DNA of 32,000 bases from Sedimentisphaera cyanobacteriorum (GTDB lineage Bacteria; Planctomycetota; Phycisphaerae; Sedimentisphaerales; Sedimentisphaeraceae), in assembly GCF_001997385.1 (NCBI RefSeq), contig NZ_CP019633.1, forward strand, positions 660,001 through 692,000. The letters run 5' to 3'. Position numbers and translations under genes: made by a program. Numbering within the stretch: position 1 is the first letter of the stretch; every line of letters starts with the position of its first letter. A model generated the notes under the pieces. It saw only the letters and a list, made by a program, of their open reading frames with translations, was not told where the DNA came from and did not search any database. Below, one piece after another: positions 16,167 to 32,000 of the stretch.

Positions 16167-16949
16167 TTACAGATTATTTTGGACGTATTCAGCGGCATTG
16201 TTGAAAATTGTCATCCCGTCCGCTTCAATATTCTCCGGCAGCCTAGTCCATTGCGGGTGCTGTATTCGTCTTATGAATCGTTCCGGATGCGGCATCAGAC
16301 CGAGAACCCTTCCTGTGGAATCAGTAAGGCCTGCAATGGAATCCACAGCTCCATTGGGATTGATTGGATAATCGCCTGTTTTGCCGTCTTTATCCACGTA
16401 GCGGAAAGCAATATGCCCGTCTTTCTGCAGAGCTTTCAGTGTTCTTGCATCTTTTGTAACAACTTTCCCCTCCCCGTGTGCCATTGGCAAATATATCCTC
16501 TGCTCAGGATTTATAAAAACGCATTTTTCTGTGCCGGGCTGGAGATATACCCAATTATCGTAGAATTGGGGGATATCATTGTGCGTTATGCTCACGCTCC
16601 TGCAGCCGATTTGGGGTGAGGCAGGAAGAAGACCGGATTTAACAAGCACCTGAAAGCCGTTGCAGATTCCAAGAACCAGTTTGCCCGCTCCCACAAATTC
16701 TTCAATTATTTCATACAAATGATGCTCAATCTGGTTTGCCAGAATTCTGCCTGCTGCCACGTCGTCTCCATAGCTGAAGCCTCCCGGGAAAACAAGTATA
16801 TGGTTTTCCTCGAGCATCGATTTGTTTTTCAGCAGTTCGTTTATATGTACTCTCTCGGCCTTAAAGCCTGCAAGCTCAAGTGCGTATTTTGTTTCTACAT
16901 CGCAGTTAATCCCTGCTGCCCGCAGAACTAAGCCATTCATCTTACTCAT
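16167..16949 (-). CDS. purQ: Phosphoribosylformylglycinamidine synthase, glutaminase subunit (FGAM synthase I)
   Basis: Class-I glutamine amidotransferase triad context is present: LVLGICNGFQVL (nucleophile Cys) and MPHPER (His/Glu). The track's start at 16970 is TTG. I prefer the ATG at 16949, with AGGA 5 nt upstream, giving MSKMNGLVLRAAGINCD. Confidence 0.85.
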   Translation of the reverse strand: MSKMNGLVLRAAGINCDVETKYALELAGFKAERVHINELLKNKSMLEENHILVFPGGFSYGDDVAAGRILANQIEHHLYEIIEEFVGAGKLVLGICNGFQVLVKSGLLPASPQIGCRSVSITHNDIPQFYDNWVYLQPGTEKCVFINPEQRIYLPMAHGEGKVVTKDARTLKALQKDGHIAFRYVDKDGKTGDYPINPNGAVDSIAGLTDSTGRVLGLMPHPERFIRRIQHPQWTRLPENIEADGMTIFNNAAEYVQNNL

Positions 16950-17037
16950 ATTTTTCCTGTAGTTTATCAATGCTTATCCAAAGAAAGATTATATCTTCGG
17001 CTCGCTTTTATTCAAGTTTTCAACTGAAACCGAGCTT

Positions 17038-18168
17038 TTAAAAATCACGGCACAGACCGCATTTTTGGTACTTCTCCACCTGCTTATCTGCCCAGCTTGA
17101 GAAGCTTCCGTCTTTTATTCTCTCTTTTATAGAAGCGATGAGCCGCTGGAAGAAACGAATGTTGTGTATTGATACAAGAGTAGGCCCGAGCATCTCGCCT
17201 ACGTTGAAGAAGTGCCTGATTGCAGCTCTGGAAAAATTTCTGCACGCATAGCAGTCGCAGTTATTTTCTATAGGTGAGCTGTCTTTAGTGTGTATTGAGT
17301 TTCTAAGCCTTACAGCTCCCGATTGGGTGAAGGCGAAGGCGTTTCTGCCGTTTCGTGTGGGGAGTACGCAGTCGAACATATCCACCCCAGCTTTAACAGC
17401 TGCAATTATATCCGGCGGCATACCCACTCCCATAAGGTATCTTGGTTTATCCTCCGGAAGCAGAGTAGCGGTGTGGTTAACTGTTTCAATCATATTTTTA
17501 TGCCCTTCGCCAACGCTCAGCCCGCCTATTGCATAGCCGGGGAAACCCATTGATACCAGCCCTTCTGCGCATCCGCTGCGAAGGGCGAGGTCTATCCCGC
17601 CCTGAACTATACCGAAAAGCAGCTGATCATCTCTTTTGTGGGATTTGAGGCTTTGCTCCGCCCATCTTATGCTTCTGTTTACTGCTGTTTTCAGTCTCTC
17701 TTCAGGGCAGGGAAACGGGGTGCATTCATCGAATGCCATTATAATATCAGCCCCGAGTTTGTTTTGTATTTCGATTGAGCTTTCCGGCCCGAGGATATAT
17801 TTCTTTCCGTCGATGTGGCTTGCAAACTCAACGCCGCTGTCGGTTATTTTGTTGAGGGTGCTCAGGGAGAAAACCTGATAGCCTCCGCTGTCGGTTAGTA
17901 TGGGTTTATCCCAAGCCATAAGTTTATGCAGGCCGCCCAGTTCTTCAACAATATCCGCTCCCGGGCGGAGCATCATATGGTAGGTGTTGGCCAGAATAAT
18001 CTGAGAGTCTGTTTCGGTAATCTGTTCCGGCGTAAGCCCTTTAACGCTTCCTCTTGTCCCAACAGGCATAAACACGGGGGTTTCTATTTCCCCGTGGGCA
18101 GTTTCTAGTACGCCCGTTCTGGCATGAGAAAATTCATCTTTGGATTTAACTTCAAAAACTTTGCCCAA
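17038..18168 (-). CDS. tgt: Queuine tRNA-ribosyltransferase (tRNA-guanine transglycosylase)
   Basis: Motifs seen are TPVFMPVGT, DSGGYQV, the LFGIVQGG region, and the zinc site CDCYAC...H. The track ORF (to 18333, TTG) adds about 55 non-homologous residues overlapping the upstream gene. The TTG at 18168 lies 1 nt after the upstream gene's TGA (18170-18172), with AAAGGA 9 nt upstream, and gives a typical 376-aa Tgt. The TTG at 18186 is an alternative. Confidence 0.88.
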   Translation of the reverse strand: MGKVFEVKSKDEFSHARTGVLETAHGEIETPVFMPVGTRGSVKGLTPEQITETDSQIILANTYHMMLRPGADIVEELGGLHKLMAWDKPILTDSGGYQVFSLSTLNKITDSGVEFASHIDGKKYILGPESSIEIQNKLGADIIMAFDECTPFPCPEERLKTAVNRSIRWAEQSLKSHKRDDQLLFGIVQGGIDLALRSGCAEGLVSMGFPGYAIGGLSVGEGHKNMIETVNHTATLLPEDKPRYLMGVGMPPDIIAAVKAGVDMFDCVLPTRNGRNAFAFTQSGAVRLRNSIHTKDSSPIENNCDCYACRNFSRAAIRHFFNVGEMLGPTLVSIHNIRFFQRLIASIKERIKDGSFSSWADKQVEKYQKCGLCRDF

Positions 18169-18169
18169 C

Positions 18170-19411
18170 TCAGTAAATCCTTTCAAGAACTGCTTCAGGG
18201 TAATAGTGTTTGAGTATCTGTCTGTAATTATTCCCCTCGACGGCCATCTGTTTTGCTCCATACTGGCACATACCCACATTGTGTCCGAATCCCTTGCCGT
18301 CTGCTGCTTTGAGTGTCCCGTTTCGTATTTCAAGCCTGCATACTGTGCTGCGAAATTTTATGCCCGTAGGGTCGGCCGTTAGGCGAAGGTCTTCAGCTCT
18401 GAGGGTTTCATCTCCGTTTTCGCAAATAATTCGAACTTTAGTTATCTTTTCAAAGCCTGCGTTCTTGAGAGTTTCGGCAGGGCGGATATCCTTTATTTTT
18501 CCAAGCTTTTTCATTGAAGAATAGTTGCTGACAAGTTTTTTCCTGAGCTCGCTGAGACTGATTTCAAATTCCGGCCAATTGAGATAGTCCTTTTTTGCTG
18601 ATTTTTTGCAGTAAGGGCATTCTACTCCTACTATACTGAAATCCTCGCCGCCGAAAACTTCTGAAGCCTTGAAAGTTGCCCCGCCGCAGGTTGAGCTGAA
18701 GTATGCCGGCAGAATGTCCTCGCTGTTTTGCACGAGAAGAACTTCGCCCTGGGTTTTGAGAAGAATTCTCCAAATCTTTTTCTCTTCTGCCTCAATCCCC
18801 CGATAAACCTGGTTTGCCTGAGTAGTTCTCAAGTGCCAGTTTTCATCTTCTCGTTGATTTGCCTGAAAAAGGGCGTAGCTCCTCGAGGCCACAGACTGTG
18901 CCTTTAGGGTTTCATCAGGCCATCTTGCCGGCACCTCCGAAGATATTACCCCTGCCAAATAGAGTTCGAGAGGTATTTCATTAATCGCCGCAATTCTTTC
19001 GCTTTCAGGATAAGGGATTATTTTAAGCCGCCCGCGATAATTCCTTCCGTTTACCGAGAAACTTTTTTTATGAGTGTAAAGCTCTATCCCTGACTCGAAT
19101 TTCGCCTTGCCGCCGGCATTTATAACTCCGTTTTCGAAGTGCAGAGCTATATTCGAGGGGGATTTTTGAAACATCACAATCTTATCACCGCTGATATCGC
19201 AAAGCTGAAAACTCCCTTCGCAGTTTATCTCGATGCTTTCTGATTTTGTCAGAAGCACTTTTAAATCCTTGCCTTTACTCTCAAACTCATCCCGCAAAGA
19301 CTTGAAATCTTTTGGCTTGGGTTTGCAGCTTTGAAAGTTTAGTATGCAAAAAAACAGGCTGCAGTATAAAAGCAGCCTGAAGGTTTTCTTTATTTTCCCG
19401 CAGGGAATCAT
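18170..19411 (-). CDS. SpoIID/LytB-domain protein (peptidoglycan remodelling, lytic transglycosylase/amidase-enhancer family)
   Basis: 413 aa with a signal or lipoprotein-like N-terminus (LLYCSLFFCILNFQSC). SpoIID landmarks are LELYLAGVISSEVPARWPDETLKAQSVASRSYAL, YFSSTCGGAT and GFGHNVGMCQYGAKQMA. The ATG at 19411 overlaps the upstream stop in an ATGA arrangement. Confidence 0.85.
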   Translation of the reverse strand: MIPCGKIKKTFRLLLYCSLFFCILNFQSCKPKPKDFKSLRDEFESKGKDLKVLLTKSESIEINCEGSFQLCDISGDKIVMFQKSPSNIALHFENGVINAGGKAKFESGIELYTHKKSFSVNGRNYRGRLKIIPYPESERIAAINEIPLELYLAGVISSEVPARWPDETLKAQSVASRSYALFQANQREDENWHLRTTQANQVYRGIEAEEKKIWRILLKTQGEVLLVQNSEDILPAYFSSTCGGATFKASEVFGGEDFSIVGVECPYCKKSAKKDYLNWPEFEISLSELRKKLVSNYSSMKKLGKIKDIRPAETLKNAGFEKITKVRIICENGDETLRAEDLRLTADPTGIKFRSTVCRLEIRNGTLKAADGKGFGHNVGMCQYGAKQMAVEGNNYRQILKHYYPEAVLERIY

Positions 19412-20733
19412 TCTTCAGATTGTTTCAGTGTAAGATTGTATTTTGCCAGCTTCTCTTTAATCTCGGTAAGACTTGTAACACCGAAATTCTTGCAGTTAAG
19501 CAGTTCTTCTTCAGTTTTATCAACCACCTCGCCGAATGTTTGAAGGCTGAGCCTGTCTATAGCTCGTCTTGCCCTTACTGAAAGCTCAAGCTCTGAAACG
19601 GGCTTGGAGAGCAGTTCGTTATCAGCCTTTTTCTTCTCTGTTTCGGCTTTCTGAGATGTGTTTTCGGTGCCGTCTTCGTTGAACTGCCCGAGTCTCAAGC
19701 CTTCGCTTTCGAGGATGGCTCTTATTTCTGTAAGGCTTGTCTCACCGAAATTTTTGTAAGAAAGGAGCTCCTGCTCGCTTATTCTGAGCAGGTCGCCTAT
19801 AGTGTTTATGTCCATCTTCTTGAGGCAGTTTCTGCTTCGCACGGAAAGCTCATATTCGCTGATAGGCTTCTCTAGAATCCTGCTTCTTGTGCTCTTTCTC
19901 TGTTCCTGCTCCTCATCATAGAGCATATTTCTCGAGCTTTCAATGTCCTTTTTGTACATCCTTGCCTGTTCGTGGTTTGGGTAGTACTTCAGGATAAGGT
20001 CAACGCAGTTTGCCGCATTTTCGTATTCTCCATTGTCCTCGTAGATCACGGCCATATTCAAAAGCACATTTACGCTTATCGGATTGCTCTCGGCGATCCT
20101 CTTGTAGAGCTTTATGGCCTGAGCTGGATTGCCGTGCAGGTCGAGCATATAGGCGAAGCTCAGGAGAGTCTGCTCATGTGCAGGGTCTATATCCAGAGCC
20201 TTTTCATACTCCCTTGCAGCCTTGTCAAATTCCCCCTGTGCATCGTATAGATTACCGTAAACGCAGTGATACTTTGCATTTTTGCCTTTTAAAACCTTCG
20301 AAAGATTTTTGAGCGCATTTTCTGCGGAGCGGTAGTCGCTTCCGTCTATAAGTACTTTAATCCTCTCAAGCTCGGCAACCGTGGGGTTGTCTATCTCATC
20401 AACTGCTTTCTGAAAATGGTCAACCGCTTCGGCTTTCCTGCCTACTCCTAAGTAAGACTTGGCAATGCAGTAGTTTTTGATTCCCGAATCTCCGGCCTTT
20501 TCGAGGCTTTCTATAGCGTCTTTGTATCTGCCTGCGATGCAATACCCTATTCCTGCCTTCAAAGCAGAATTCTTTTTACTGCTGCCAGCAATTTCATCAA
20601 CCTTCTCAACAAACTTCATTTTGTTTCGCTCTGAATTGTTTACCGAGAGGTTGACTTTCTGGTAGTCCTCTAAAGTAGGTGCGGTTTTAGAGGAGAATAA
20701 GCTGTTCCAAATTTTTTCAGTGTTTTCTTGCAT
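19408..20733 (-). CDS. TPR-repeat protein with two C-terminal RNA polymerase alpha-subunit CTD-like (helix-hairpin-helix) domains
   Basis: The N-terminal ~300 aa have TPR-like A/Y/G periodicity (for example AKSYLGVGRKAEAVDHFQKAV and YGNLYDAQGEFDKAAREYEKALDIDP). Two segments then closely resemble RpoA alpha-CTD. The first is ELSVRSRNCLKKMDINTIGDLLRISEQELLSYKNFGETSLTEIRAILESEGLRLG. The second is ELSVRARRAIDRLSLQTFGEVVDKTEEELLNCKNFGVTSLTEIKEKLAKYNLTL. The track's start at 20799 is TTG; I prefer the ATG at 20733. Confidence 0.8.
   Translation of the reverse strand: MQENTEKIWNSLFSSKTAPTLEDYQKVNLSVNNSERNKMKFVEKVDEIAGSSKKNSALKAGIGYCIAGRYKDAIESLEKAGDSGIKNYCIAKSYLGVGRKAEAVDHFQKAVDEIDNPTVAELERIKVLIDGSDYRSAENALKNLSKVLKGKNAKYHCVYGNLYDAQGEFDKAAREYEKALDIDPAHEQTLLSFAYMLDLHGNPAQAIKLYKRIAESNPISVNVLLNMAVIYEDNGEYENAANCVDLILKYYPNHEQARMYKKDIESSRNMLYDEEQEQRKSTRSRILEKPISEYELSVRSRNCLKKMDINTIGDLLRISEQELLSYKNFGETSLTEIRAILESEGLRLGQFNEDGTENTSQKAETEKKKADNELLSKPVSELELSVRARRAIDRLSLQTFGEVVDKTEEELLNCKNFGVTSLTEIKEKLAKYNLTLKQSEE
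19426..19863 (-). repeat. Intragenic tandem duplication encoding the two alpha-CTD-like domains (19684-19863 and 19426-19599)
   Basis: The two ~60-aa units share the ELSVR-x-R...G(D/E)...EL(L)...KNFG-x-TSLTEI pattern. Residual nucleotide similarity is visible on the + strand: gtaagacttgtaacaccgaaattcttgca versus gtaaggcttgtctcaccgaaatttttgta. Confidence 0.7.
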
Positions 20734-20877
20734 ATTTTGTTTTCGCCTGTTAATTATTCGCTGATAACGAAATTCTTTTCTTTCTTCAATTATAAACAAT
20801 ATTGCGATTGATTATAATAAGCCGTCAATCTTTTGCAACCGTTTTGTAAGCCTCTGAGGCAGGATTGTACTTGTTAT

Positions 20878-21843: not shown

Positions 21844-22068
21844 TTATAAAATCCTAAAATTAAATTTAACAAGGTTGATTTTTTGATTGTATAATATAAA
21901 CTTTCGCCCTTTGCAAGCGGTAAATTTATACGATTTTGCTTTTTAAGTAAAGCATCAAGTTGATTTTTGCCACTGCGTTTTTATACGGTTTCTTTAAAAA
22001 ACTGTTTTAAACAATTTCAGTTAGCCATTTTTATATAACAAAAATAATTATAACATTCAGGAAATAAA

Positions 22069-24120
22069 ATGAAAGACTCCTCCAGAAAGGCGATGAACGT
22101 TGCTCTCGGCGGAATGATCCTGTCATTGATAGGCTTTTTGGGATGCCTGCTTACCGGTATTATTACAAGCATCCTTCCGGTGCAGTTTATAGCTTGGCAT
22201 CTTCTCGGTGCAGCAATTATATGGCTGTACTTAATTGTCTATTACCACAACTTCGGACTGGCAGAGCGTGAAAAACGCGATGAAGCTATCCTGAAATCAC
22301 AGGATGAGACGATTTTTCAGGATTCACAGCAGAGACAGGCGATGTTTTCTGCTGCCCGTAAGAGGTTCAAGATATTTGAGCGGTGGGGAGGTATAGTTTT
22401 TTCAATTCTATCAGCGGCCTACAGCATTGCGATTGGCCTCTGGCTCATATCAAAACTCAGAGAAGGATTGGAATTAGTCGGCAGGAATCCGCTTGCAGGT
22501 GCTTCAGCAATGATAGTTGCATGGTTTGCAAGCTTCCTTCTTGCAAAGTACGCCTCGGGGATGTCCTCAGAGAAAGACTGGCAGCCGCTAAGGGCGGGAG
22601 GCAGTTATCTGATTTCCTCCTCAGCCGCCTCGCTCATAACAGCAATAGCCCTGGGCATCAGTTTCTTTCACTACGAACTGCCCGTTTTAATAGCAAGCTG
22701 GCTTATACCTGTAGTAATGCTTGCTTTTGGTGCAGAGACGGTTTTGAATACTGTGCTGGATATCTATCGCCCGAGAATCAAAGGTGCTTATCACAGGCCC
22801 GGATTAGACAGCCGCCTGCTTGGTATAATCAGCCAGCCGGGAAGTATGCTGCATACCGCAGCCAGCACGATTGATTATCAGTTTGGATTTAAGGTGTCCC
22901 AGACTTGGTTTTATCGTCTTCTTGAGAAGGCGATTCTCCCTCTTATGCTCCTGCTTATTTTGTGTATGTATCTGATGAGCTGTTTTGTGGTAGTAGGGCC
23001 TGGGAAAAAGGCCGCTATAGAGCATCTCGGCTCTACAGACAACGGCAGAAGAATTGTTGGCCCTGGTATGCATCTTAAATGGCCTGCACCTTTCGACAAG
23101 GCTTACATACACGATACCGAGAGAATACAGCAGCTAAACATCGGCATTATGAATGCCCCTGAGATAAATGAAGAAACCGATGAGATCGTTAAAAAGCCCC
23201 TTCTATGGGGTCAGAAACATCAAGAGGTTGAATTACGCCTTATAGTTGCCACTGAATCCTCAGAGGCTATAAGCAATGAAGACGCCCCGCCGGTAAGTTT
23301 GATAGTCGCTGCGGTACCGGTTCAGTACAGGGTGAACGACCTGTATGAATTCCTGTACAACCATAAAGGCCCCGAAACTATCCTTAAAAACGTATCGTAT
23401 AGAGAGATTGCACGCTATATGGCAAGTGCAAAGCTTGAAACCAACATATTCGGCGGTGATATTCAAGACGATGAAAGCGTGCTTGGAGCGGGCAGGAAAG
23501 AGGCAAGCGAGAAGCTCACTAAAATAATACAGTCAAGAGCTGATGAGCTCGGCCTCGGCGTTGAAATTGTAACGGTCGGCCTTCAGGGTATCCACCCGCC
23601 TCTGGATGTGGCCTCAGATTACGAAGAGGTTATAGGAGCTGTGCAGCAGAGGCAGCAATCAATCCTTTCAGCGCTTGCTGAAAGAAATAAAACGCTTACT
23701 GAGCTTGGCGGTTCTCTCGAACAGGTTAACAGTCTTTATCAGAAGCTCTCAGATTACGAGCAGGAAAAAGACCAGTTGTCCGAGTCTGTCAGGGAACAGA
23801 GGCTTGCCGAGCTTGATAATGCCTTCCTTGATGCACGCGGGGAGATAGCAGAAAAGATCTTTGATGCAGAGCAGTATGCCTTTAAGAAGAAGCGGCTGTC
23901 TAAAGCCTCCGGCGAGAGGTTCAAGAGCCAGCTCAAGGCCTATCAGGCTGCTCCGAAGATTTATCTGCAGAATGAAAGGCTGCTTACTCTGGAAAGGTCT
24001 CTTGAAGATGTGCGCAAGTATATTGTAGTTTCCGGCGAGCAAGACAGTGAGGTTATGATTGTTGATCTCAAACAGAAACTCAACCCCGATATATACGACT
24101 TAGAGCTTCCTGAAGAATAA
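22069..24120 (+). CDS. SPFH/band-7 (HflK-like) protein fused to an N-terminal ~300-aa polytopic membrane domain
   Basis: 683 aa, ATG start, with AGGAAA upstream. Seven hydrophobic segments occur in aa 10-310, for example VALGGMILSLIGFLGCLLTGIITSIL and AILPLMLLLILCMYLMSCFVVV. An SPFH-type core follows (VVVGPGKKAAIEHLG...IVGPGMHLKWPAPFDKAYIHDT...VPVQYRVNDLYEFLYN), then a long coiled-coil-like C-terminus. Confidence 0.8.
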   Translation: MKDSSRKAMNVALGGMILSLIGFLGCLLTGIITSILPVQFIAWHLLGAAIIWLYLIVYYHNFGLAEREKRDEAILKSQDETIFQDSQQRQAMFSAARKRFKIFERWGGIVFSILSAAYSIAIGLWLISKLREGLELVGRNPLAGASAMIVAWFASFLLAKYASGMSSEKDWQPLRAGGSYLISSSAASLITAIALGISFFHYELPVLIASWLIPVVMLAFGAETVLNTVLDIYRPRIKGAYHRPGLDSRLLGIISQPGSMLHTAASTIDYQFGFKVSQTWFYRLLEKAILPLMLLLILCMYLMSCFVVVGPGKKAAIEHLGSTDNGRRIVGPGMHLKWPAPFDKAYIHDTERIQQLNIGIMNAPEINEETDEIVKKPLLWGQKHQEVELRLIVATESSEAISNEDAPPVSLIVAAVPVQYRVNDLYEFLYNHKGPETILKNVSYREIARYMASAKLETNIFGGDIQDDESVLGAGRKEASEKLTKIIQSRADELGLGVEIVTVGLQGIHPPLDVASDYEEVIGAVQQRQQSILSALAERNKTLTELGGSLEQVNSLYQKLSDYEQEKDQLSESVREQRLAELDNAFLDARGEIAEKIFDAEQYAFKKKRLSKASGERFKSQLKAYQAAPKIYLQNERLLTLERSLEDVRKYIVVSGEQDSEVMIVDLKQKLNPDIYDLELPEE

Positions 24121-24164
24121 TTGAAATTGAATATTGATACTAAGGTGTTTAAGGCAGAATAAAA

Positions 24165-25106
24165 ATGAGAAGATTACCAAAGCTGATTCTTGTAACAGCA
24201 ATCGTAGTGCTGCTTGGATTCAAGCTGTGCAGCTATCAGGTCAGGGAAACAGAGTCTGCATTGATAACGAGGTTCGGAAAACCAATAGCTGAAAAAACCG
24301 AGCCTGGGCTTTACTTCAAACTTCCTACGCCCTTTGATGTTGTACATAAATTCGATTCCCGATTGCAGGTTTTTGAAGGCCAGCAGGAGGAAACTACAAC
24401 CAAAGGCGGGGAGCCTGTTATCATCACCCCTTATATGATATGGCAGATTTCTCAGCCTCAGCTGTTTTTCGAGAGGGTTTCCACTGACAGAGAGGTGCAG
24501 AAGTTTCTTTTGAGCCAGCTTCGAAATCATGCCAACGCGGTGGTCGGGAAGCATTATTTCAGCGAGTTTGTTAACACAGATCCTGAAAAAATAAAATTTG
24601 AGCAGATTGAGAATGAACTGCTTCAGGCTCTCAAGGAATCCACCGAAGATGAGTACGGGATTACAGTTGCATCTGTAGGGATTAAGAAGCTTGAACTCAA
24701 TGAAGAGGTTACAGAGGCTGTCTTTGAGAGAATGCGTGCCGACAGGCAGCGCAAGAAAGAAGACATCCTTGGAGAAGGCCGCTCTACCGCAACGAGAATC
24801 AGAACTGATGCCGATAAGAAAAAGCAGCAGCTTCTGGCAGCTGTCGAGTCCCGCGTGATTGCGATTAAAGGTGAGGGTGATGCAGGAGCAGCAAAATATT
24901 ACAAAATGCTTCAGGACGACCCCGAACTTGCCATGTATTTAAGAGATCTGGAAGCTCTTGCCAAAATTCTTGAGAACAGGTCAACTGTTGTTCTCGGGGC
25001 AGAGACTGACCCAATGAAACTGCTTCGTGAGGTGCCCGAACTTGAGTCTTCCAAACCGAAAGACTCGAAGGCATCTAAGCAAGATAGTGAAAACAAAGAA
25101 AAGTAA
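24165..25106 (+). CDS. SPFH/band-7 protein, HflC-like
   Basis: 313 aa with an ATG start. A single N-terminal TM (LILVTAIVVLLGFKLC) is followed by YQVRETESALITRFGKPI...PGLYFKLPTPFDVVHKFDSR...ISQPQLFFERV and an Arg/Lys/Glu-rich helical region (RMRADRQRKKEDILGEGRS), as in HflC. Confidence 0.8.
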   Translation: MRRLPKLILVTAIVVLLGFKLCSYQVRETESALITRFGKPIAEKTEPGLYFKLPTPFDVVHKFDSRLQVFEGQQEETTTKGGEPVIITPYMIWQISQPQLFFERVSTDREVQKFLLSQLRNHANAVVGKHYFSEFVNTDPEKIKFEQIENELLQALKESTEDEYGITVASVGIKKLELNEEVTEAVFERMRADRQRKKEDILGEGRSTATRIRTDADKKKQQLLAAVESRVIAIKGEGDAGAAKYYKMLQDDPELAMYLRDLEALAKILENRSTVVLGAETDPMKLLREVPELESSKPKDSKASKQDSENKEK

Positions 25107-25124
25107 ATTCTCGGAGCTGTCTTG

Positions 25125-26399
25125 ATGAATGAAATAGAAAACAAAAACCCTGAAAATCAGCAGGATATTACAGCCGACATGGATTCAGGCAGCAAAGCAC
25201 TTGCAGATGCGCTGAAACTGAGCTTTGCTGTTTTGAAGCTTATAATGATTGTGCTCATAATCCTGTTCTTTGCTTCGGGTGTTTATACAGTAGAAAAGAA
25301 TGAAAAGGCAATAGTTCTTCGTTTAGGGAAGGTTGTTCGTGATGCCTCAGGAACTTCCCTTAAAGAGCCCGGACTTCACTGGGCGCTTCCTTACCCGATT
25401 GATGAGATTGTTAAAATACCCGTAACTGCCACACAGAAGCTTGAAATCGATGATTTCTGGTATTTCGATCCTGAACAGGGCAGCAGGCCAGGACAAACTC
25501 TCAATCCGATAAGAGACGGCTACTGCCTCACACGCAATGAAGAGGTTCAGGGCTATGAAGACCAGCTCGCAACCGACTACAACATCGTGCACTGCAAATG
25601 GCAGCTCAACTGGACTATTGAAGACGACCCTTACGCATTCTTTAGAAACGTGAAGGTTCGCTCGGTTAGGCCTGGAGAGCTTTACAGAGATGTGATTTCT
25701 GAAAGCGTTGAGCCTCTGCTTACGACTGTTGCAGATGACGCAATAGTGCGAACGCTGGCAAAATACAGCATCGATCAGGCGGTTACAACATCAAAATCGA
25801 ATATCACAAGGGAAGTTACTGCTCGAGTTCAGAAAAGGCTCCGAGAGCTTTCAACAGGTATAAGAGTTCGCGATATGCAGATACTCAAAATAACCTGGCC
25901 GCGTCAGGTTGACCAGGCCTTCCTTGCTTCAATAAAGGCCGGCCAGAACCGCAGCAGCATTGAAACCGAAGCCTGGACTTACTACGAGAAAACACTCAAT
26001 GAAGCGGGCGGCCCGAGAGCGGAAGAATCGCTGAAGGTCCTTCTTGATGAGAGCTCCACAGAGGCTGAAATCCGCAGGGCTTATTCAGACCTTACTGGTC
26101 AGGCCAGCAAGAATCTCAGCGAGGCACGGTCTTACAAGACTAAGGTTATAGAAACCGCCAAGGCAAACGCTAACTACCTCAGTCAGCTGCTCCCTGAATA
26201 CCGAAAGAGGCCTGAGCTTGTGATAGAAAGAATCTATCAGGATAATATGGAACAAATATTGGACACTGTTGACGAAAAGATTATCGTACAGCCCGCTAAA
26301 CAGGGCAAAGACAGAGAATTCAGGGTACTGATTAGCAGAAACCCCTCGATTAAAGATAAAAAAAGCGGCAGTGATGAAAACCAGAATGGCAATCAGTAA
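25125..26399 (+). CDS. SPFH/band-7 protein, HflK-like (second HflK-type paralog)
   Basis: The ATG at 25125 has GGAG 8 nt upstream; the track's 25122 is a TTG one codon earlier. A polar N-terminus and one TM (LKLIMIVLIILFFASGVY) precede TVEKNEKAIVLRLGKV...PGLHWALPYPIDEIVKIP...DYNIVHCKWQLNWTIEDDPYAFFRNV, followed by a helical C-terminus. Confidence 0.75.
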   Translation: MNEIENKNPENQQDITADMDSGSKALADALKLSFAVLKLIMIVLIILFFASGVYTVEKNEKAIVLRLGKVVRDASGTSLKEPGLHWALPYPIDEIVKIPVTATQKLEIDDFWYFDPEQGSRPGQTLNPIRDGYCLTRNEEVQGYEDQLATDYNIVHCKWQLNWTIEDDPYAFFRNVKVRSVRPGELYRDVISESVEPLLTTVADDAIVRTLAKYSIDQAVTTSKSNITREVTARVQKRLRELSTGIRVRDMQILKITWPRQVDQAFLASIKAGQNRSSIETEAWTYYEKTLNEAGGPRAEESLKVLLDESSTEAEIRRAYSDLTGQASKNLSEARSYKTKVIETAKANANYLSQLLPEYRKRPELVIERIYQDNMEQILDTVDEKIIVQPAKQGKDREFRVLISRNPSIKDKKSGSDENQNGNQ

Positions 26400-26419
26400 T
26401 AAATAAGGCGCAATCTACA

Positions 26420-28414
26420 ATGGCACATGACCACCTTCATATAGAACAATTAGAGTTTGAAAGTCAGGACGGGCTCAAGGAAGCCGGAAGGGTTCGCAGA
26501 GTGAGCCTTGCACTGATTGCTACCTTGGCCGGCGGAGTGCTGCTGCTGAACAGCTATCTCAGCGGTCTGCCTTTCCTTTACGGTGCAGACAGCCCGGTTG
26601 TTGAACTCAGTGCAATGTTCGGCGCAATTCTGCTCGGTCTTCCTGTGATAATACATTCAGTGAAAAATATCATCAAAGGCCATATGCATATGGATGAGCT
26701 TGTTGCGCTTGCGATTATTGCTGCATTTGCAACAGGCCAGTATAAAGAGGCCGGTATCGTATCTTTCTTCCTGCTTCTGAGCGAACTGATGGAAACGAGA
26801 ACCGCTCTTGGAGCAAGAGCCTCAATCGAATCTCTGATAAAGCTTACGCCCAAGAGAGCGGTAAAGTTAGAATCAGACGGAAACGAGAAGGAAGTTAAGG
26901 TTTCTGAGCTCAGCAAGGATGATGTAATACGAATCCGCCCGGGTGATAATGTAGCGGCAGATGGAGAAGTGATATCAGGCCTTACAAGCATAAACGAGGC
27001 CACTATCACAGGTGAGTCTCTGCCTGTGGACAAAGTGCCCGGGATGCAGGTTTTTGCAGGTACAACAAACCTTACCGGCGGAATTGATGTTAAGGTTACC
27101 AAGGTAGGCTCCCAGACAACTCTCGGCAAGGTGCAGGAGCTGATAATGCAGGCCGAGAAAACCAAAATCCCTATTATGAGGATTATGGATAAATACATAA
27201 AGTGGTATATCCCAACGATCCTTATGATAGCAGCAATCGCTTGGTTTTTCACAAAACACCTCGACAGGTCTATAGCGGTTCTTGTTGTATCCTGTCCTTG
27301 TGCTCTTATTCTCGCCACGCCTACTGCTATGGTGGCAGCAATATCGGCCGCAGCGAGGCTCGGTATATTTGTCAAAAATGTTGCCGATCTGGAAATTGCC
27401 GGAAAACTCAGTTCAATGGTGTTTGATAAAACAGGAACATTGACCACTGGCCGGCTCTATGTAACAAAGCTCGAACCCGCTGAAGGGGTGGAACCGGCAG
27501 ACCTGCTTCGAACAGCAGCATCTGCTGAAAAAATGAGCAAGCACCCGGCAGCAAGAGCTTTGATGGGGCTTGCTAAAGAGGCCAACGTCTCTCTGCAGGA
27601 AAGCGAGAACTTTGAAGAAGTTCCCGGCAAGGGCGTTCAGGCAGCTGTTGAGGGAAGCAAGGTGCTTATTGGAAGAGACAGCTTCCTCAAAGACAGCAGC
27701 ATCGATCTTTCTGCTGTATCTGATCCGGCTCTTCACGAAGAAGAAGGCTTCAGCACCCTTTACATAGCGAAAGACGGGGTTTGCATGGGCTGGATTGGTA
27801 TGCAGGATAAAACAAGGCCTGAGGCCAGAGAGGCTGTAAAGAAGCTGCTCGATTCAGGGCTCAAAAGAATCACTATGCTTACAGGCGACCGTAAGGAAGT
27901 TGCCAACAGGGTAGCATCGGAGCTTGGCTGTACCGATTTCAGGGCAAGCTGCCTGCCGCAGGACAAGCTCTCAATCGTTAGGAAAATCAGAGATGAGGGC
28001 CACGTTGTGGCGGTAATCGGAGATGGAATCAATGATGCCCCTGCTCTTGCTGAAGGCGATTTGGGGATCGCAATGGGAGCAGCAGGCAGTGATGTGGCTA
28101 TCAGTTCAGCATCTATAGCCCTGATGAACAACGACCTTGAAAGGCTTCCATTTCTGGTGAATCTGTCAAGAAAAACAAGAACAGTTATCACTCAGAACCT
28201 GCTTTTCGGGAGTCTGTTTATTGTTATAGGCATTGCTCTTACCCTTTCAGGCATTGTTTCAGCAGCGCTTGCAGCCCCGCTTCATTTTGTCGGTTCACTT
28301 TTTGTAATTTTCAACAGTGCCCGCTTAGTACGCTACGGCGAATACTTTGACACACACGAAGCTGTTATAGCACGTGATAAAATTACTGATGCGGGAGAAA
28401 AAAATAATGAATAA
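26420..28414 (+). CDS. Heavy-metal-translocating P-type ATPase (P1B class), lacking an N-terminal HMA metal-binding domain
   Basis: 664 aa with an ATG start. Motifs are TGES (ITGESLPV), the transmembrane CPC (VVSCPCALILATP), the phosphorylation site DKTGTLT, the hinge GDGINDAPALA, and MLTGD. The N-terminus begins MAHDHLHIEQ (short His cluster) and runs straight into TM helices. Confidence 0.9.
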   Translation: MAHDHLHIEQLEFESQDGLKEAGRVRRVSLALIATLAGGVLLLNSYLSGLPFLYGADSPVVELSAMFGAILLGLPVIIHSVKNIIKGHMHMDELVALAIIAAFATGQYKEAGIVSFFLLLSELMETRTALGARASIESLIKLTPKRAVKLESDGNEKEVKVSELSKDDVIRIRPGDNVAADGEVISGLTSINEATITGESLPVDKVPGMQVFAGTTNLTGGIDVKVTKVGSQTTLGKVQELIMQAEKTKIPIMRIMDKYIKWYIPTILMIAAIAWFFTKHLDRSIAVLVVSCPCALILATPTAMVAAISAAARLGIFVKNVADLEIAGKLSSMVFDKTGTLTTGRLYVTKLEPAEGVEPADLLRTAASAEKMSKHPAARALMGLAKEANVSLQESENFEEVPGKGVQAAVEGSKVLIGRDSFLKDSSIDLSAVSDPALHEEEGFSTLYIAKDGVCMGWIGMQDKTRPEAREAVKKLLDSGLKRITMLTGDRKEVANRVASELGCTDFRASCLPQDKLSIVRKIRDEGHVVAVIGDGINDAPALAEGDLGIAMGAAGSDVAISSASIALMNNDLERLPFLVNLSRKTRTVITQNLLFGSLFIVIGIALTLSGIVSAALAAPLHFVGSLFVIFNSARLVRYGEYFDTHEAVIARDKITDAGEKNNE

Positions 28415-28448
28415 TCACACTTGCTCTAATTTGTGATGAGGGGTAATT

Positions 28449-29642
28449 TTGAGTGAACAATATGCAATAGAAACAATCTCTCTTACCAAGGCCTTTAAGG
28501 ACTGGTGGGGCAGAACAAAGGTTCTTGCAGTGGACGATTTAAACCTCAAGATAAAACGCAATGAGGTTTACGGACTGCTCGGCCCGAATGGCTCTGGCAA
28601 GAGCACAACGATAAAAGTTCTCCTTTCTCTGCTTCATCCGACAAAGGGAAAATCTTTCATACTCGGGGCAGACAGCAGGGAGAAACGTGTTGCAGAGCGT
28701 ATAGGGTTTCTTCCCGAAGAGTCTTATCTGTACAAGTATCTTTCTGCCAAAGAAACTTTGAAATTTTACGGGAATCTCTTCGGGATACCCTCAAAAGTTC
28801 TCAATATGCGTATTGAATCTCTGCTTGATATGGTAGGCCTTTCGGCAGTTGCCAACAGGCCTATAGGGACATTTTCAAAGGGTATGCAGAGAAGGATAGG
28901 GCTCGCTCAGGCCCTTGTAAACGACCCTGATGTTTTGATTCTTGATGAGCCGACATCCGGTCTGGATCCAATAGGCACAAGACAGATCAAAGATTTGATT
29001 AAGAAGCTCGCAGAACGCGGGAAAACCGTTCTTATGTGCAGCCATTTGCTCGCTGATGTAGAAGACGTTTGCGACAGAATCTGCGTTCTCTACGGCGGAA
29101 GAGTGCAGTGTGAAGGCAGCGTTAAAGATCTTCTCCGCCAGACAGGCAAGAAGCAGATTATAGCTGAAAATATTCAGGAAGATGCCTTGGAGAAGGCGTG
29201 CAGCGTGATTCAGCAGGCCGGCGGGGCCTGCGAGGTGAGCTCACCCCAGTTCCGTCTTGAAGACCTGTTTATTCAGGTTGTAGAGAAGGCGCAGAAGGAA
29301 AAAATTGCTACAGGAGGGGCATACAGCACCGGTAAAATCGGAAGCTTCCTTGGAGAAGAGCAGCAGGAAGATAAAACTGAAAAAGTGCTTGACGAGCTTG
29401 TCTCGGCAGATGTTTCAAAGAAGGAAGAAACCGAAAAAACCCGTCCTGAGCCGGAAACACAGCCGGCAGAGCATGAGGAGGACAAGAAGGTGTTAAGCGA
29501 GCTTGTTAAGGAAGAAGATTCGAATGAAGAAAAGGCCGAAAGCGGCGAGGACGAACTCACTCCTGCCAAAGAAGAAAAGAAAAAGCAGGAGCCGGTAAAA
29601 GATGATGTTTTGAAGGATTTGATGGGGGATGATGATGCGTAA
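28449..29642 (+). CDS. ABC transporter ATP-binding protein (ABC-2 subfamily type) with a ~95-aa acidic/lysine-rich C-terminal extension
   Basis: The TTG start has a strong GAGGGG 5 nt upstream, and no in-frame ATG lies nearby. Motifs are Walker A GPNGSGKST, Q-loop, signature FSKGMQRR, Walker B VLILDEPTSGLD and H-loop CSHLL. The tail from about aa 303 is E/K/D-rich. Confidence 0.9.
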   Translation: MSEQYAIETISLTKAFKDWWGRTKVLAVDDLNLKIKRNEVYGLLGPNGSGKSTTIKVLLSLLHPTKGKSFILGADSREKRVAERIGFLPEESYLYKYLSAKETLKFYGNLFGIPSKVLNMRIESLLDMVGLSAVANRPIGTFSKGMQRRIGLAQALVNDPDVLILDEPTSGLDPIGTRQIKDLIKKLAERGKTVLMCSHLLADVEDVCDRICVLYGGRVQCEGSVKDLLRQTGKKQIIAENIQEDALEKACSVIQQAGGACEVSSPQFRLEDLFIQVVEKAQKEKIATGGAYSTGKIGSFLGEEQQEDKTEKVLDELVSADVSKKEETEKTRPEPETQPAEHEEDKKVLSELVKEEDSNEEKAESGEDELTPAKEEKKKQEPVKDDVLKDLMGDDDA

Positions 29643-31005
29643 TATTCGCATTATTGCTCTTAACACCTTTTCGCAGCTTATAAGGATGAAGGTGGCGGTA
29701 ATTGTTATCCTCCTGCTGCTTGCCCTTATCCCGTTTATGGCTGTGCAGGCGGTCGGAGACGGTACGCTGCTCGGTAAGCTTCAAACCTTCTCGAGCTACG
29801 GGGTCTCGCTTGTGAGCCTTCTTTTATGTATGCTCACTATTACCCTGTCGTGCTACGCTCTTTCAAGCGATATCAAAAATAAGCAGATATTCAGTATTGC
29901 AACAAAGCCTGTTCAGAGATATGAGATTCTCCTCGGCAAATTTGGCGGCGTTATGTTTGTGAATCTGCTGTTTTTAGCGGTATTCGGAAGCATTTTATAT
30001 TTCCTTACGGTGAGCCTGCCGAAATATACTGAGACTGATTCGCAGGAGCTGCAGCAGGTTGAAGACGAGTTCTTCAATGCAAGAACCGGTATTACTCCCG
30101 AAATTGATGAGGTTAGCTTCCGCGAGGAAGCCAGAAAAGAGTATTCCCGCCTTCGAAGCGAAGGGCAGGTACCGCAGGATAAAACTATGCGGGAATACAT
30201 AAATGAGTATGTTAATCAGAAAAAGTATCAGGCGGTTTCTGTAGCGGCTGGAGAAATGAAAGACTGGACTTTCAAGGATCTCAAACCGCAGGACAAACAA
30301 AACGGCTTTATATATCTTAGATTTAAGTATGAAGCTTCTACGCCGCCGCCGGATAATATGATTGCCGGCAGATGGCTGATCGGCGATAAACGCCAGCTGG
30401 AACAGGCCAAAAAAACGCAAACTCCGATTTATGACAGCTATGTAAGGAAAGATGCTGTCAAAACGTTCCACGAGATCAAAATCCCCGCTGCTGTTGTTCC
30501 CGAAGACGGACAGCTGACTGTGGAATTTCAGAATTTGTATTTCAATAATACAACCGTGATACCGAGGGAGATCGAACTGCTCTATAAATCCGGGTCTTTC
30601 GGTATGAACTACTTCAAAGCCAATTTACTGATTTTGATACGTCTGGTCTTCCTCACGGCAATGGGAGTCTTTCTGACTACTTGGCTGTCTTTCCCAGTGG
30701 CGATATTTGTTTCTCTTGTCGTGTATTTTACCGGAATGGTAAACGGCTTTATCGTAGGGGCGATAGATTCGCTCACTCAGGGAATAGGGCTTATCTATAT
30801 GTTCACTGTTAAGCCTCTGCTTCATCTTCTGCCCAGTTTCGATGGAGAAAGCAATCCTTCAGGCAAGATACTTTCTGCCCGTATGATAGGCTCTCTTTTC
30901 CTTTTGGAAAAGACAGGCATAACGATAATTCTCAAGTCCGGAGGGCTTTTAGCCGCCGGTGCACTTGTATTCAACAGACGCGAGCTTGCTAAAGTAACCG
31001 TGTAA
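29629..31005 (+). CDS. ABC-2 family permease with a ~200-aa extracytoplasmic insertion
   Basis: 458 aa. Three consecutive ATGs (29629-29637) overlap the ATPase stop (29640-29642). It has the N-terminus RIIALNTFSQLIRMKVAVIVILLLL, the conserved block SSDIKNKQIFSIATKPVQRYEILLGKF, and a large polar loop (about aa 130-330) before the C-terminal TM bundle. It ends FNRRELAKVTV, similar to the 20878-21843 product. Confidence 0.65.
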   Translation: MMMRNIRIIALNTFSQLIRMKVAVIVILLLLALIPFMAVQAVGDGTLLGKLQTFSSYGVSLVSLLLCMLTITLSCYALSSDIKNKQIFSIATKPVQRYEILLGKFGGVMFVNLLFLAVFGSILYFLTVSLPKYTETDSQELQQVEDEFFNARTGITPEIDEVSFREEARKEYSRLRSEGQVPQDKTMREYINEYVNQKKYQAVSVAAGEMKDWTFKDLKPQDKQNGFIYLRFKYEASTPPPDNMIAGRWLIGDKRQLEQAKKTQTPIYDSYVRKDAVKTFHEIKIPAAVVPEDGQLTVEFQNLYFNNTTVIPREIELLYKSGSFGMNYFKANLLILIRLVFLTAMGVFLTTWLSFPVAIFVSLVVYFTGMVNGFIVGAIDSLTQGIGLIYMFTVKPLLHLLPSFDGESNPSGKILSARMIGSLFLLEKTGITIILKSGGLLAAGALVFNRRELAKVTV

Positions 31006-31012
31006 GGTTTTT

Positions 31013-32000
31013 ATGGCATATAAAAATATAATCATAACTATAATGCTTTTTGCAGTGGGATGCAGCATACTCTTTACATCCTCTCTGCAGTTAGACGATT
31101 TAAATAAATCACGCAAAGACCTTGACCTTGTGGCCAATAAGCCGCTCGAGAATGCGCCTCCTGCCCTTGCCTTCGCAACCGTAGCGATGGGAGCTTTTCG
31201 CGGGCTTGTTGTTGACATACTGTGGATGAGGGCGGATTCCCTAAAAGAAGAAGGCAAGTTTTTCGATGCAAAGCAGCTTGCTGAATGGATTACCGTCCTT
31301 CAGCCCCGCTTCAGCGCTGTATGGGATTTTCAGTCTTGGAATATGGCCTACAATATATCCGTGGCAATGCCTCCTTCCCAGCCTGAGGAGAGATGGAAAT
31401 GGGTGCGGAACGGATACGAGCTTCTAAGGGATAAGGGAATACCGCGGAATCCCAATTCTATCATACTATACAGATCGCTTGCGTGGATATTCCAGCACAA
31501 GATCAGCGGGGTAACTGATGATGTGCATAAATACTACAAGATTCAGCTTGCATTATCGATGCGTCCTTTGATATCTCCTTTAACTAATGAGCATTTCGAA
31601 AAGCTTTCGAATGCCCCTGAGACGCTTTCGCAGCTTACCGAATCGGATGAGTCCGCAGCTGAGCTTGTATCTAAGATGAGGGAATTTGCGCCGGATGTTT
31701 TCAGCGAAGAACTAACGGATTTGGAATTTGCAGGTGTATTCTTTGCTCTTCTTGATTCGGCAGGCGAGGGATACCCCGACCAGCTTGTTGAATTTGTAAG
31801 GGCGGAGATTGAAAGCCAGAGGTTTGAAAAACTGCGTAATTTCTGTCAGGCCTGCAAGCTGAGGCAGGAGTGGAAGTTCGATATAGACCTTATGAAAAAA
31901 GTCAATAAACGTTACGGCCCCGTTGATCTGAAAACAGGCGACAGGCTCCCTCTAAACTGGGAACACCCCGATGCCCATGCAATCTTCTGGGCTGAAAAGG
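31013..32000 (+). CDS. Putative lipoprotein of unknown function, 3'-truncated by the window edge and last visible gene of the SPFH/transporter operon
   Basis: This ORF is not in the track because it has no stop in the window. I translated it by hand from the ATG at 31013: MAYKNIIITIMLFAVGCSILF...AMGAFRGLVVDILWMRADSLKEEGKFFDAKQLAEWITVLQPRFSAVWDFQSWNMAYNISV... The frame is open through base 32000. It has a lipobox-like FAVGC and AAGG 7 nt upstream, and starts 7 nt after the permease stop. Confidence 0.6.
   Translation, partial: MAYKNIIITIMLFAVGCSILFTSSLQLDDLNKSRKDLDLVANKPLENAPPALAFATVAMGAFRGLVVDILWMRADSLKEEGKFFDAKQLAEWITVLQPRFSAVWDFQSWNMAYNISVAMPPSQPEERWKWVRNGYELLRDKGIPRNPNSIILYRSLAWIFQHKISGVTDDVHKYYKIQLALSMRPLISPLTNEHFEKLSNAPETLSQLTESDESAAELVSKMREFAPDVFSEELTDLEFAGVFFALLDSAGEGYPDQLVEFVRAEIESQRFEKLRNFCQACKLRQEWKFDIDLMKKVNKRYGPVDLKTGDRLPLNWEHPDAHAIFWAEK

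Follow-up and report, generated by a model that had tools for sequence, protein, structure and literature searches.

A conserved gene cluster of Phycisphaerae carrying three HflK/HflC-like SPFH genes beside ABC-2-type transporter and P1B-type ATPase genes

What bacterial SPFH assemblies (HflK/C, flotillin, stomatin) enclose, and why, is an open question in the field. To our knowledge, FtsH and NfeD are the sole well-documented partners of these assemblies. The question is raised by a locus in a 32,000-nucleotide (nt) stretch of the genome of Sedimentisphaera cyanobacteriorum (Planctomycetota, Phycisphaerae, Sedimentisphaerales), hereafter the window, in which three SPFH genes stand in one run with genes for a P1B-type ATPase, an ABC ATPase, and an ABC-2-type permease. 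Recently described effects of HflK/C are hard to attribute to FtsH alone (PMC12005517; bioRxiv 10.1101/2024.08.09.604662). An earlier note on this DNA had put the locus forward as one dedicated, undescribed SPFH-transporter system; synteny in near and distant relatives bears this out, no characterised operon matched, and we found no description of the cluster in the full-text literature, Pfam, NCBIfam, PADLOC, or Rfam. We refer to the seven plus-strand genes as g1 to g7 and to the divergent permease gene beside them as u1. There is good support for the eight genes being one functional unit, which we consider probable.

The layout of the run agreed with the earlier note in most respects. All seven same-strand open reading frames were found, with gaps of 44, 15 or 18, 20, 34, -14, and 7 nt between them (the second gap is 15 nt from the TTG start of g3 at 25122 and 18 nt from the ATG directly after it, at 25125). 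The run from g1 to g7 is uninterrupted, with no terminator-like site on the plus strand between genes, and the AT-rich leader upstream of g1 has a GC content of 0.24. Assignments of the products likewise held. Band_7 (PF01145) was found in g1, g2, and g3 (E from 4.7e-12 to 1.7e-25), and g2 scored best against HflC and g1 and g3 against HflK, as expected of an HflK/HflC/HflK-like triplet. The P1B ATPase g4 matched E1-E2_ATPase and Hydrolase and reached 561 bits against the TIGR01525 cut-off of 346, and the ABC ATPase g5 matched ABC_tran (E = 1.6e-31). For the permeases u1 and g6, ABC-2 scores in the window proteins were below the Pfam cut-off (24.7 and 23.5 bits), and orthologues carry clean PF12679 matches above it, which upholds the ABC-2 call for g6.

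The search for g1 relatives yielded more than 1300 full-length homologues. Scanning one genome per species for the g1 peptides VSQTWFY and DYQFGF, we found a relative in at least 573 species genomes. As a near set we took the 80 best loci by g1 (42-61% identical) and three loci from an exact protein look-up, with per-gene counts covering only loci whose contig reaches far enough. The order, u1 on the minus strand and then g1 to g7 on the plus strand, is near-invariant in 81 related genomes. Presence was complete for g2 (79/79), g3 (74/74), and g4 (64/64) and nearly so for g5 (62/63), g6 (58/59), and g7 (53/57); L068 lacks g7, and in L056 and L066 masked sequence begins right after g6. The seven-gene unit of the earlier note becomes one of eight genes, since the divergent permease gene u1 is co-conserved in 74/74 loci. 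Over 80 loci, the median gap was -4 nt at the g1-g2 junction, -8 nt at g5-g6, and 29-43 nt elsewhere. The overlap of g1 with g2 is 4 nt in most orthologous loci, and that of g5 with g6 is 14 nt in the window with a median of 8 nt in 63 loci.

The cluster reaches well beyond these relatives. HMMER over 1.84 billion cluster representatives returned 705 g1 clusters (50% identity) at E <= 1e-30, many of them full-length matches at 29-38% identity, and the full-length architecture of g1 is common to these clusters and to the more than 1300 homologues. All named distant homologues among the matches listed belong to Phycisphaerae or Planctomycetota, and the distribution of the cluster seen so far is one bacterial class, Phycisphaerae. 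We fetched nine distant loci (L084-L092) and confirmed orthology by tblastn, with identities of 33-41% for u1, 28-33% for g1, 30-38% for g2, 24-30% for g3, 51-55% for g4, 51-55% for g5, 24-34% for g6, and 23-49% for g7. Each of the nine retains u1, three SPFH genes, the ABC ATPase gene, the large permease gene, and a g7-like gene, with u1 on the strand of g1 in L085, L088, and L089. The P1B gene was linked to the cluster in 7/9, its arrangement taking three forms; it lies between the SPFH-C and ABC ATPase genes in L088 and L089 and upstream of u1 in L085, L086, L087, L091, and L092. In loci with no P1B gene between them, the SPFH-C and ABC ATPase genes are contiguous or overlap (by 1 nt in L091). 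Rearrangement of genes that nonetheless stay together is what selection for linkage classically leaves behind. The invariant core is thus the three SPFH genes, the ABC-2 exporter, and g7, with the P1B ATPase strongly but non-universally associated.

The earlier note had held that the association would be incidental if the neighbourhood were confined to its source genome; we found the cluster in essentially every related genome examined and in the nine distant loci. Adjacency of unrelated genes by chance, or as a peculiarity of one genome, could still be argued from the facts that the genes are linked by genomic context only, that one near locus (L073) lacks the ABC half, and that two distant loci lack the P1B gene. 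The cluster is, however, co-conserved almost without exception in at least 80 species-level genomes and nine divergent loci, with translationally coupled junctions; this speaks against such an explanation, which we regard as very improbable.

Table 1. Features of the cluster in the window, with the evidence for each.
Feature	Positions	Strand	Evidence
u1: ABC-2-type permease, 321 aa	20878-21843	-	weak Pfam ABC2_membrane_2/4 matches, co-conserved
AT-rich divergent spacer between u1 and g1, 225 nt	21844-22068		blocks conserved across orthologous loci
g1: HflK-like SPFH protein, 683 aa, N-terminal domain of 6-7 transmembrane helices	22069-24120	+	Band_7, AlphaFold2
g1 loop, aa 231-288, directly before the last transmembrane helix	22759-22932	+	alignment
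g2: HflC-like SPFH protein, 313 aa, one N-terminal transmembrane helix	24165-25106	+	Band_7, TIGR01932
g3: HflK-like SPFH protein, 425 aa, one N-terminal transmembrane helix	25122-26399	+	Band_7, TIGR01933
g4: P1B-type ATPase, 664 aa, 8 predicted transmembrane helices	26420-28414	+	TIGR01525
g5: ABC ATPase, 397 aa, acidic disordered tail	28449-29642	+	ABC_tran
g5 tail, aa 300-397, three short motif copies	29346-29639	+	motif compared with shuffles
g6: ABC-2-type permease, 458 aa, insert of ~200 aa	29629-31005	+	weak ABC2_membrane_4/2 matches
g7: first 329 of 612 aa, gene cut by the window end	31013-32000	+	no Pfam match

The two single-helix SPFH proteins are close to the HflK/HflC pair of Escherichia coli. 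We compared them with the equivalog models and found that g2 (Band_7 E = 1.7e-25) scored 124.4 bits against the TIGR01932 hflC cut-off of 134.4 and g3 (Band_7 E = 5e-19) 136.5 bits against the TIGR01933 hflK cut-off of 159.4. Among solved structures, g2 is closest to E. coli HflC (E = 1e-24) and g3 to E. coli HflK (E = 2.7e-20). C-terminal stretches of all three SPFH proteins also align with the hflK and hflC models and with the E. coli HflK and HflC chains. In g1, Band_7 spans aa 308-535; the protein scored 82.7 bits against the hflK cut-off of 159.4 and had no hflC match. On these scores the trio is HflK/C-like, and, being below every equivalog cut-off, its members are uncertified as equivalogs. 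The SPFH part of g1 is just 21% identical to g3, so the paralogues are ancient.

The likeness to the E. coli HflK/HflC-FtsH complex (PDB 7vhp, 7wi3) goes beyond closest relatives. As in that system, a single N-terminal hydrophobic segment precedes the SPFH and coiled-coil parts of g2 and g3, K- and C-type genes are adjacent and translationally coupled, and the expected product would be a hetero-oligomeric periplasmic cage or arc over a membrane patch. The cluster differs in having three paralogues rather than two, in the multi-helix domain and invariant loop of g1, which have no counterpart there, and in being tied to an ABC-2 exporter, a TPR-like protein, and a P1B ATPase instead of hflX/hfq or FtsH. 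In keeping with the earlier note, Pfam and NCBIfam scans of the window proteins found neither FtsH nor NfeD within the 32 kb; for FtsH, this absence says nothing about whether it is a partner. An NfeD domain was likewise missing from the eight cluster proteins and from the called genes of 12 inspected loci, which separates the cluster from the SPFH-NfeD operons (stomatin/YbbK-YbbJ, YqiK-YqiJ, FloA/FloT), although in these, too, an SPFH gene and its dedicated membrane partner stay together in a conserved operon. Some SPFH-NfeD operons have duplicated SPFH genes (Hinderhofer et al. 2009, PMC2636767), and that survey of 497 genomes contains the words "ATPase" and "ABC" nowhere (0 occurrences).

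An FtsH gene is not necessarily adjacent to hflKC in other bacteria, and enterobacterial P-type ATPases such as MgtA are FtsH substrates. The trio might therefore be housekeeping HflK/HflC: g2 and g3, with an extra g1, would be the ordinary FtsH modulators of Phycisphaerae, the cage would enclose FtsH, and the transporters would be merely co-transcribed or be FtsH substrates themselves. Scores barely under the equivalog cut-offs, the E. coli proteins as best solved relatives, and the canonical K-then-C order of g1 and g2 with its 4-nt overlap all fit such a role. An incidental operon, however, would not persist at 28-33% identity through rearrangements that keep the partners adjacent, and the third paralogue, with its multi-helix domain and invariant loop, occurs in the cluster context only, at every locus examined. 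We consider this explanation fairly unlikely; it is compatible with a version of our model in which FtsH is inside the cage too.

The N-terminal domain of g1 (aa 1-310), six or seven transmembrane (TM) helices fused ahead of the SPFH and coiled-coil parts, is novel, and its first ~310 residues had no Pfam match. The structure that AlphaFold2 predicts for aa 1-312 (predicted local distance difference test, pLDDT, 74) has six long TM helices, then a loop modelled at low confidence, and then TM7. The loop region is the most conserved part of g1, with the pattern DIYRPR...DSRLLG...PGG...DYQFGFKVSQTWFYxLLEKA over aa 231-288, also written DIYRPR...DSRLLG...DYQFGFKVSQTWFY; the invariant columns of the alignment (A1) are D231, Y233, R234, P235, S248, R249, P257, G258, and D269-Y282. 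TM counting on the model suggests that the loop would face the cytoplasm, and with seven predicted TM helices, an odd number, the SPFH domain would still lie outside.

Foldseek with the g1 N-domain (22069-23004) gave top matches that were all ZnT/YiiP and were weak (E 0.025-0.3, TM-score 0.41-0.49). Among 14 g1 family members, the Cation_efflux Pfam model had no match even at E <= 10, and the conserved polar ladder E223/N227/D231 on TM6 differs from the CDF motif HxxxD/DxxxD. With no sequence support and weak structural matches, a CDF-like metal transporter is a lead only. As a separate observation, aa 273-307 of g1 (22885-22989), with the invariant SQTWFYRLLEKA, resembles the caveolin scaffolding-domain stretch TKYWFYRLLSA, and the Pfam Caveolin model matched 8/14 family members weakly (best E = 0.014). 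The likeness is probably chance or a convergent interfacial amphipathic motif, curious in that both would be scaffolds of membrane microdomains.

The exporter of the core would be built from g5, g6, and u1. By family models g5 is DrrA/GldA/NodI-like and below every equivalog cut-off; its GldA score, 193.6 bits against a cut-off of 402.6, places it outside GldA. The closest solved nucleotide-binding domains are those of ABCA3/7/4/1 and NosF, which indicates an exporter of the type-V/ABC-2 class. The permeases u1 and g6 share an ABC-2 signature stretch and are distant paralogues, so a heterodimeric membrane domain is likely for the exporter, with u1 probably as its second transmembrane subunit. 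The insert of g6 (aa ~130-325) lies between TM helices and is predicted to be periplasmic; by sequence, g6 has no solved relative. The tail of g5 carries the motif [IVL][LI]-x-x-L-[VTLIM] in three copies, VLDELV, VLSELV, and VLKDLM. Three copies were found in 46/62 unique g5 orthologues, and 61/62 shuffled tails had none; in the distant loci, 8/9 had one to three matches and L089 had near-variants only. A docking role for the motif is likely.

Known type-V systems (NosDFY-NosL, GldAFG, ABCA) share several features with this exporter: a DrrA/NosF/ABCA-like nucleotide-binding domain, PF12679 permeases of the NosY/GldF family, a permease with a large extracytoplasmic domain, and a non-catalytic partner encoded next to the transporter. 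Unlike them, the cluster has two different permeases, no NosD, NosL, or GldG homologue, a disordered g5 tail with three conserved motifs, and in g7 a protein of no described family; from GldAFG it is further set apart by the GldA score of g5.

We aligned g4 to LpCopA (3rfu), sCoaT (7qbz), and ZntA (4umv). Its core motifs, DKTGT, TGES, and GDGxNDxP, are conserved in 65 orthologues; it has no HMA domain and carries a conserved, His-rich N-terminal MAHxHLH. In M4, SCPC is invariant in the 65 near orthologues, and g4 has the highest conservation of all cluster genes in the near loci (median identity 68%, range 64-83%). The 8-TM core, DKTGT, the missing HMA domain, and the His-rich N-terminus are shared with P1B-4 ATPases (sCoaT; CzcP/PfeT/CtpD type) and P1B-2 ZntA, as is an M5 that has neither YN nor Lys, and the M6 His aligns with that of the HEGST motif of sCoaT. 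Against the P1B-4 signature, M4 has CPC and not SPC, and M6 reads LHFxGS rather than HEGxT, sharing just the His and Gly-Ser with sCoaT. The P1B-1 (Cu+) signature failed against LpCopA, with FI for YN in M5 and HFVGS for MALSS in M6, so that the YN/MxxSS of CopA is missing. As for P1B-2 (Zn/Cd/Pb), M5 reads NLLFGSLFI and contains no Lys, and the M6 His stands at what we take to be the position of ZntA Asp714, leaving g4 without the presumed Lys/Asp pair of ZntA and the Asp of DxG. By its motifs, g4 appears to fit no defined P1B metal subgroup. Two distant loci, L086 (4361-5925) and L092 (4649-6239), carry a pair of opposite-strand genes directly upstream of the P1B gene, one for a McsB-like protein arginine kinase and the other for a McsA-like UVR-domain protein, an arrangement that may reflect no more than lineage-specific synteny.

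Taken with the exporter, these P1B data bear on what the system would move. ABCA-type and other type-V exporters carry a large extracytoplasmic insert. An ABCA/NosFY-like type-V machine for a lipid or lipid-linked envelope molecule could be the heart of the cluster, with the SPFH proteins organising a microdomain and the P1B ATPase an accessory, the whole not being a metal system. Such an exporter would fit the large extracytoplasmic insert of g6, the ABCA lipid transporters and NosF as the nearest solved relatives of the g5 nucleotide-binding domain, the exclusion of P1B from the core that is invariant across nine distant loci, and degenerate P1B ligands in some lineages. Native HflK/C-FtsH also bends the membrane and enhances lipid scrambling (bioRxiv 10.1101/2024.08.09.604662). 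However, similarity in the nucleotide-binding domain does not specify a substrate, and no solved transporter matches g6 by sequence. The P1B gene is moreover the most conserved of the cluster and is present in 64/64 near and 7/9 distant loci, which argues for functional integration. A lipid or envelope exporter of this kind overlaps our model; as an explanation in its own right we hold it to be unlikely.

The last member of the core, g7, was described in the earlier note as a lipoprotein, a claim that our comparison does not support: the Cys of "FAVGC" is unconserved, the L004 orthologue having none in its N-terminal part, and a 29-sequence alignment shows no invariant Cys. The fragment in the window is 100% identical to S. 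cyanobacteriorum L21SP3_00526, which gives the full protein. It has more than 3000 homologues, all annotated "hypothetical," and matched no Pfam or NCBIfam model, GldG-type models included. AlphaFold2 of full g7 (pLDDT 83) shows an N-terminal TM helix followed by an all-alpha TPR-like solenoid, for which Foldseek found weak generic TPR-type matches only (E > 2e-3). A second conserved hydrophobic helix (Kyte-Doolittle mean ~1.65) contains the invariant charges R63 and D68. If this helix spans the membrane, the solenoid would lie in the cytoplasm, where the g5 tail motifs might dock onto it; otherwise it would be periplasmic.

We compared the u1-g1 spacers of L002-L083 and found blocks shared by ~60 loci: TTATTG-TTATATTAC, then TTGTAAAG exactly 14 nt on, followed by ATACTGT..TTTG, TTTTTTGTTC, and GGGAT with an A-rich stretch ahead of the ATG. 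Such conservation favours a common regulation of u1 and the g1-g7 operon. On the plus strand of the window, a sigma-70-like site, TTAACA-18-TATAAT, lies at 21866-21895 (11/12 match). A leader hairpin presenting TTGTAAAG was rejected, its best-stem length (4.6) being no better than in shuffles (4.2). A minus-strand u1 promoter TTTACA-N17-TATAAT can be read in some loci (L002 and L010) and is inconsistent across 76 loci, and the promoter assignment is ambiguous.

The cluster resembles each known system in parts and as a system is a member of none. A role in anti-phage defence was also considered and rejected, since PADLOC gave generic ABC-ATPase similarity only. The reading that we put forward is an HflK/C-type scaffold dedicated to the ABC exporter, alone or together with the P1B pump, as one membrane machine, to which we give about even chances. 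It draws on the tight packing of the genes, the lack of plus-strand terminators, the deep co-conservation, and the HflK/HflC family assignments, as well as on the constrained g1 loop, the triple motif of g5, and the charged helix of g7, all of which are cluster-specific. HflK/C encloses membrane clients in cages or nautilus-like arcs (bioRxiv 10.1101/2024.08.09.604662) and affects the stability of other proteins (PMC12005517). Oligomerisation, topology, physical contact, and an envelope or metal-export role of the cluster are inferred.

In the proposed mechanism, three paralogues, the K-like g1 and g3 and the C-like g2, would form one SPFH assembly, with their SPFH and coiled-coil parts on the periplasmic face, like those of E. 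coli HflK/C. On the model of the E. coli cage of 12+12 subunits and the native nautilus-like arc, g2 might alternate with g1 and g3; the cage or arc so made would fence off part of the cytoplasmic membrane, with the multi-helix domain of g1 as a reinforcement. The enclosed clients would be the ABC exporter (u1, g6, and g5, with the g6 domain reaching into the periplasm) and the P1B pump where present. The scaffold may set the lipid environment, assembly, or turnover of these clients, possibly by presenting them to FtsH. On the cytoplasmic side, the g5 tail motifs and the invariant g1 loop are likely docking elements, and the g7 solenoid is a candidate receptor. A stricter form, in which the protein-walled compartment is closed, g1 adds a bundle of 6-7 TM helices per subunit, and the exporter and P1B pump are obligate clients docked via the g1 loop, the g5 motifs, and g7, seems to us rather doubtful.

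Several observations weigh against the dedicated scaffold. It is synteny alone that suggests a physical scaffolding or gating of the transporters by the SPFH proteins, and the scores of g2 and g3 lie so near the cut-offs that these may be the ordinary FtsH modulators of the lineage. The N-domain of g1 and g7 are without an informative structural match. The module can also be split. L073 keeps u1, the SPFH trio, and the P1B gene and has two PEP-CTERM-type proteins (16400-19140) in place of g5-g7, and L084 and L090 have no P1B gene within 10 kb and keep all other members. Among the distant P1B orthologues, that of L086 (6390-8372) has CPS, and that of L089 (14199-16211) has CPG together with a change of the M6 His to Asn, a drift in metal ligands that cautions against a simple metal-export reading. 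No metal-sensing regulator was found beside the cluster, and a search of the spacer against Rfam at a permissive E-value gave a chance match only and no riboswitch. The metal-stress reading of the earlier note is weak: the P1B gene lies outside the invariant core, is missing from 2/9 distant loci, and shows ligand drift in two others.

The remainder of the window is housekeeping, and two of its genes deserve mention. The gene next upstream of u1 (19408-20799, minus strand), which is unconserved beside the cluster in other genomes, encodes a 463-aa TPR protein of unusual architecture with two tandem RNA_pol_A_CTD stretches (E = 4e-41). An iron-containing alcohol dehydrogenase (56-1714, plus strand) has an N-terminal extension of ~150 residues without a Pfam match, its Fe-ADH domain beginning at aa 150.

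For the SPFH family, the cluster offers a genetically defined candidate for a non-FtsH client complex, kept across the class Phycisphaerae. It also contains constrained elements that are uncharacterised: the multi-TM domain and loop of g1, the g7 family, the triple motif of g5, and a P1B ATPase without a subgroup. Sedimentisphaera cyanobacteriorum, S. salicampi, and Limihaloglobus sulfuriphilus are cultured hosts, and the model is thus testable. If the closed-compartment form were true, this would be the first bacterial SPFH cage with a genetically defined cargo of two primary active transporters rather than FtsH, and would represent a new class of "corralled" transport machine.

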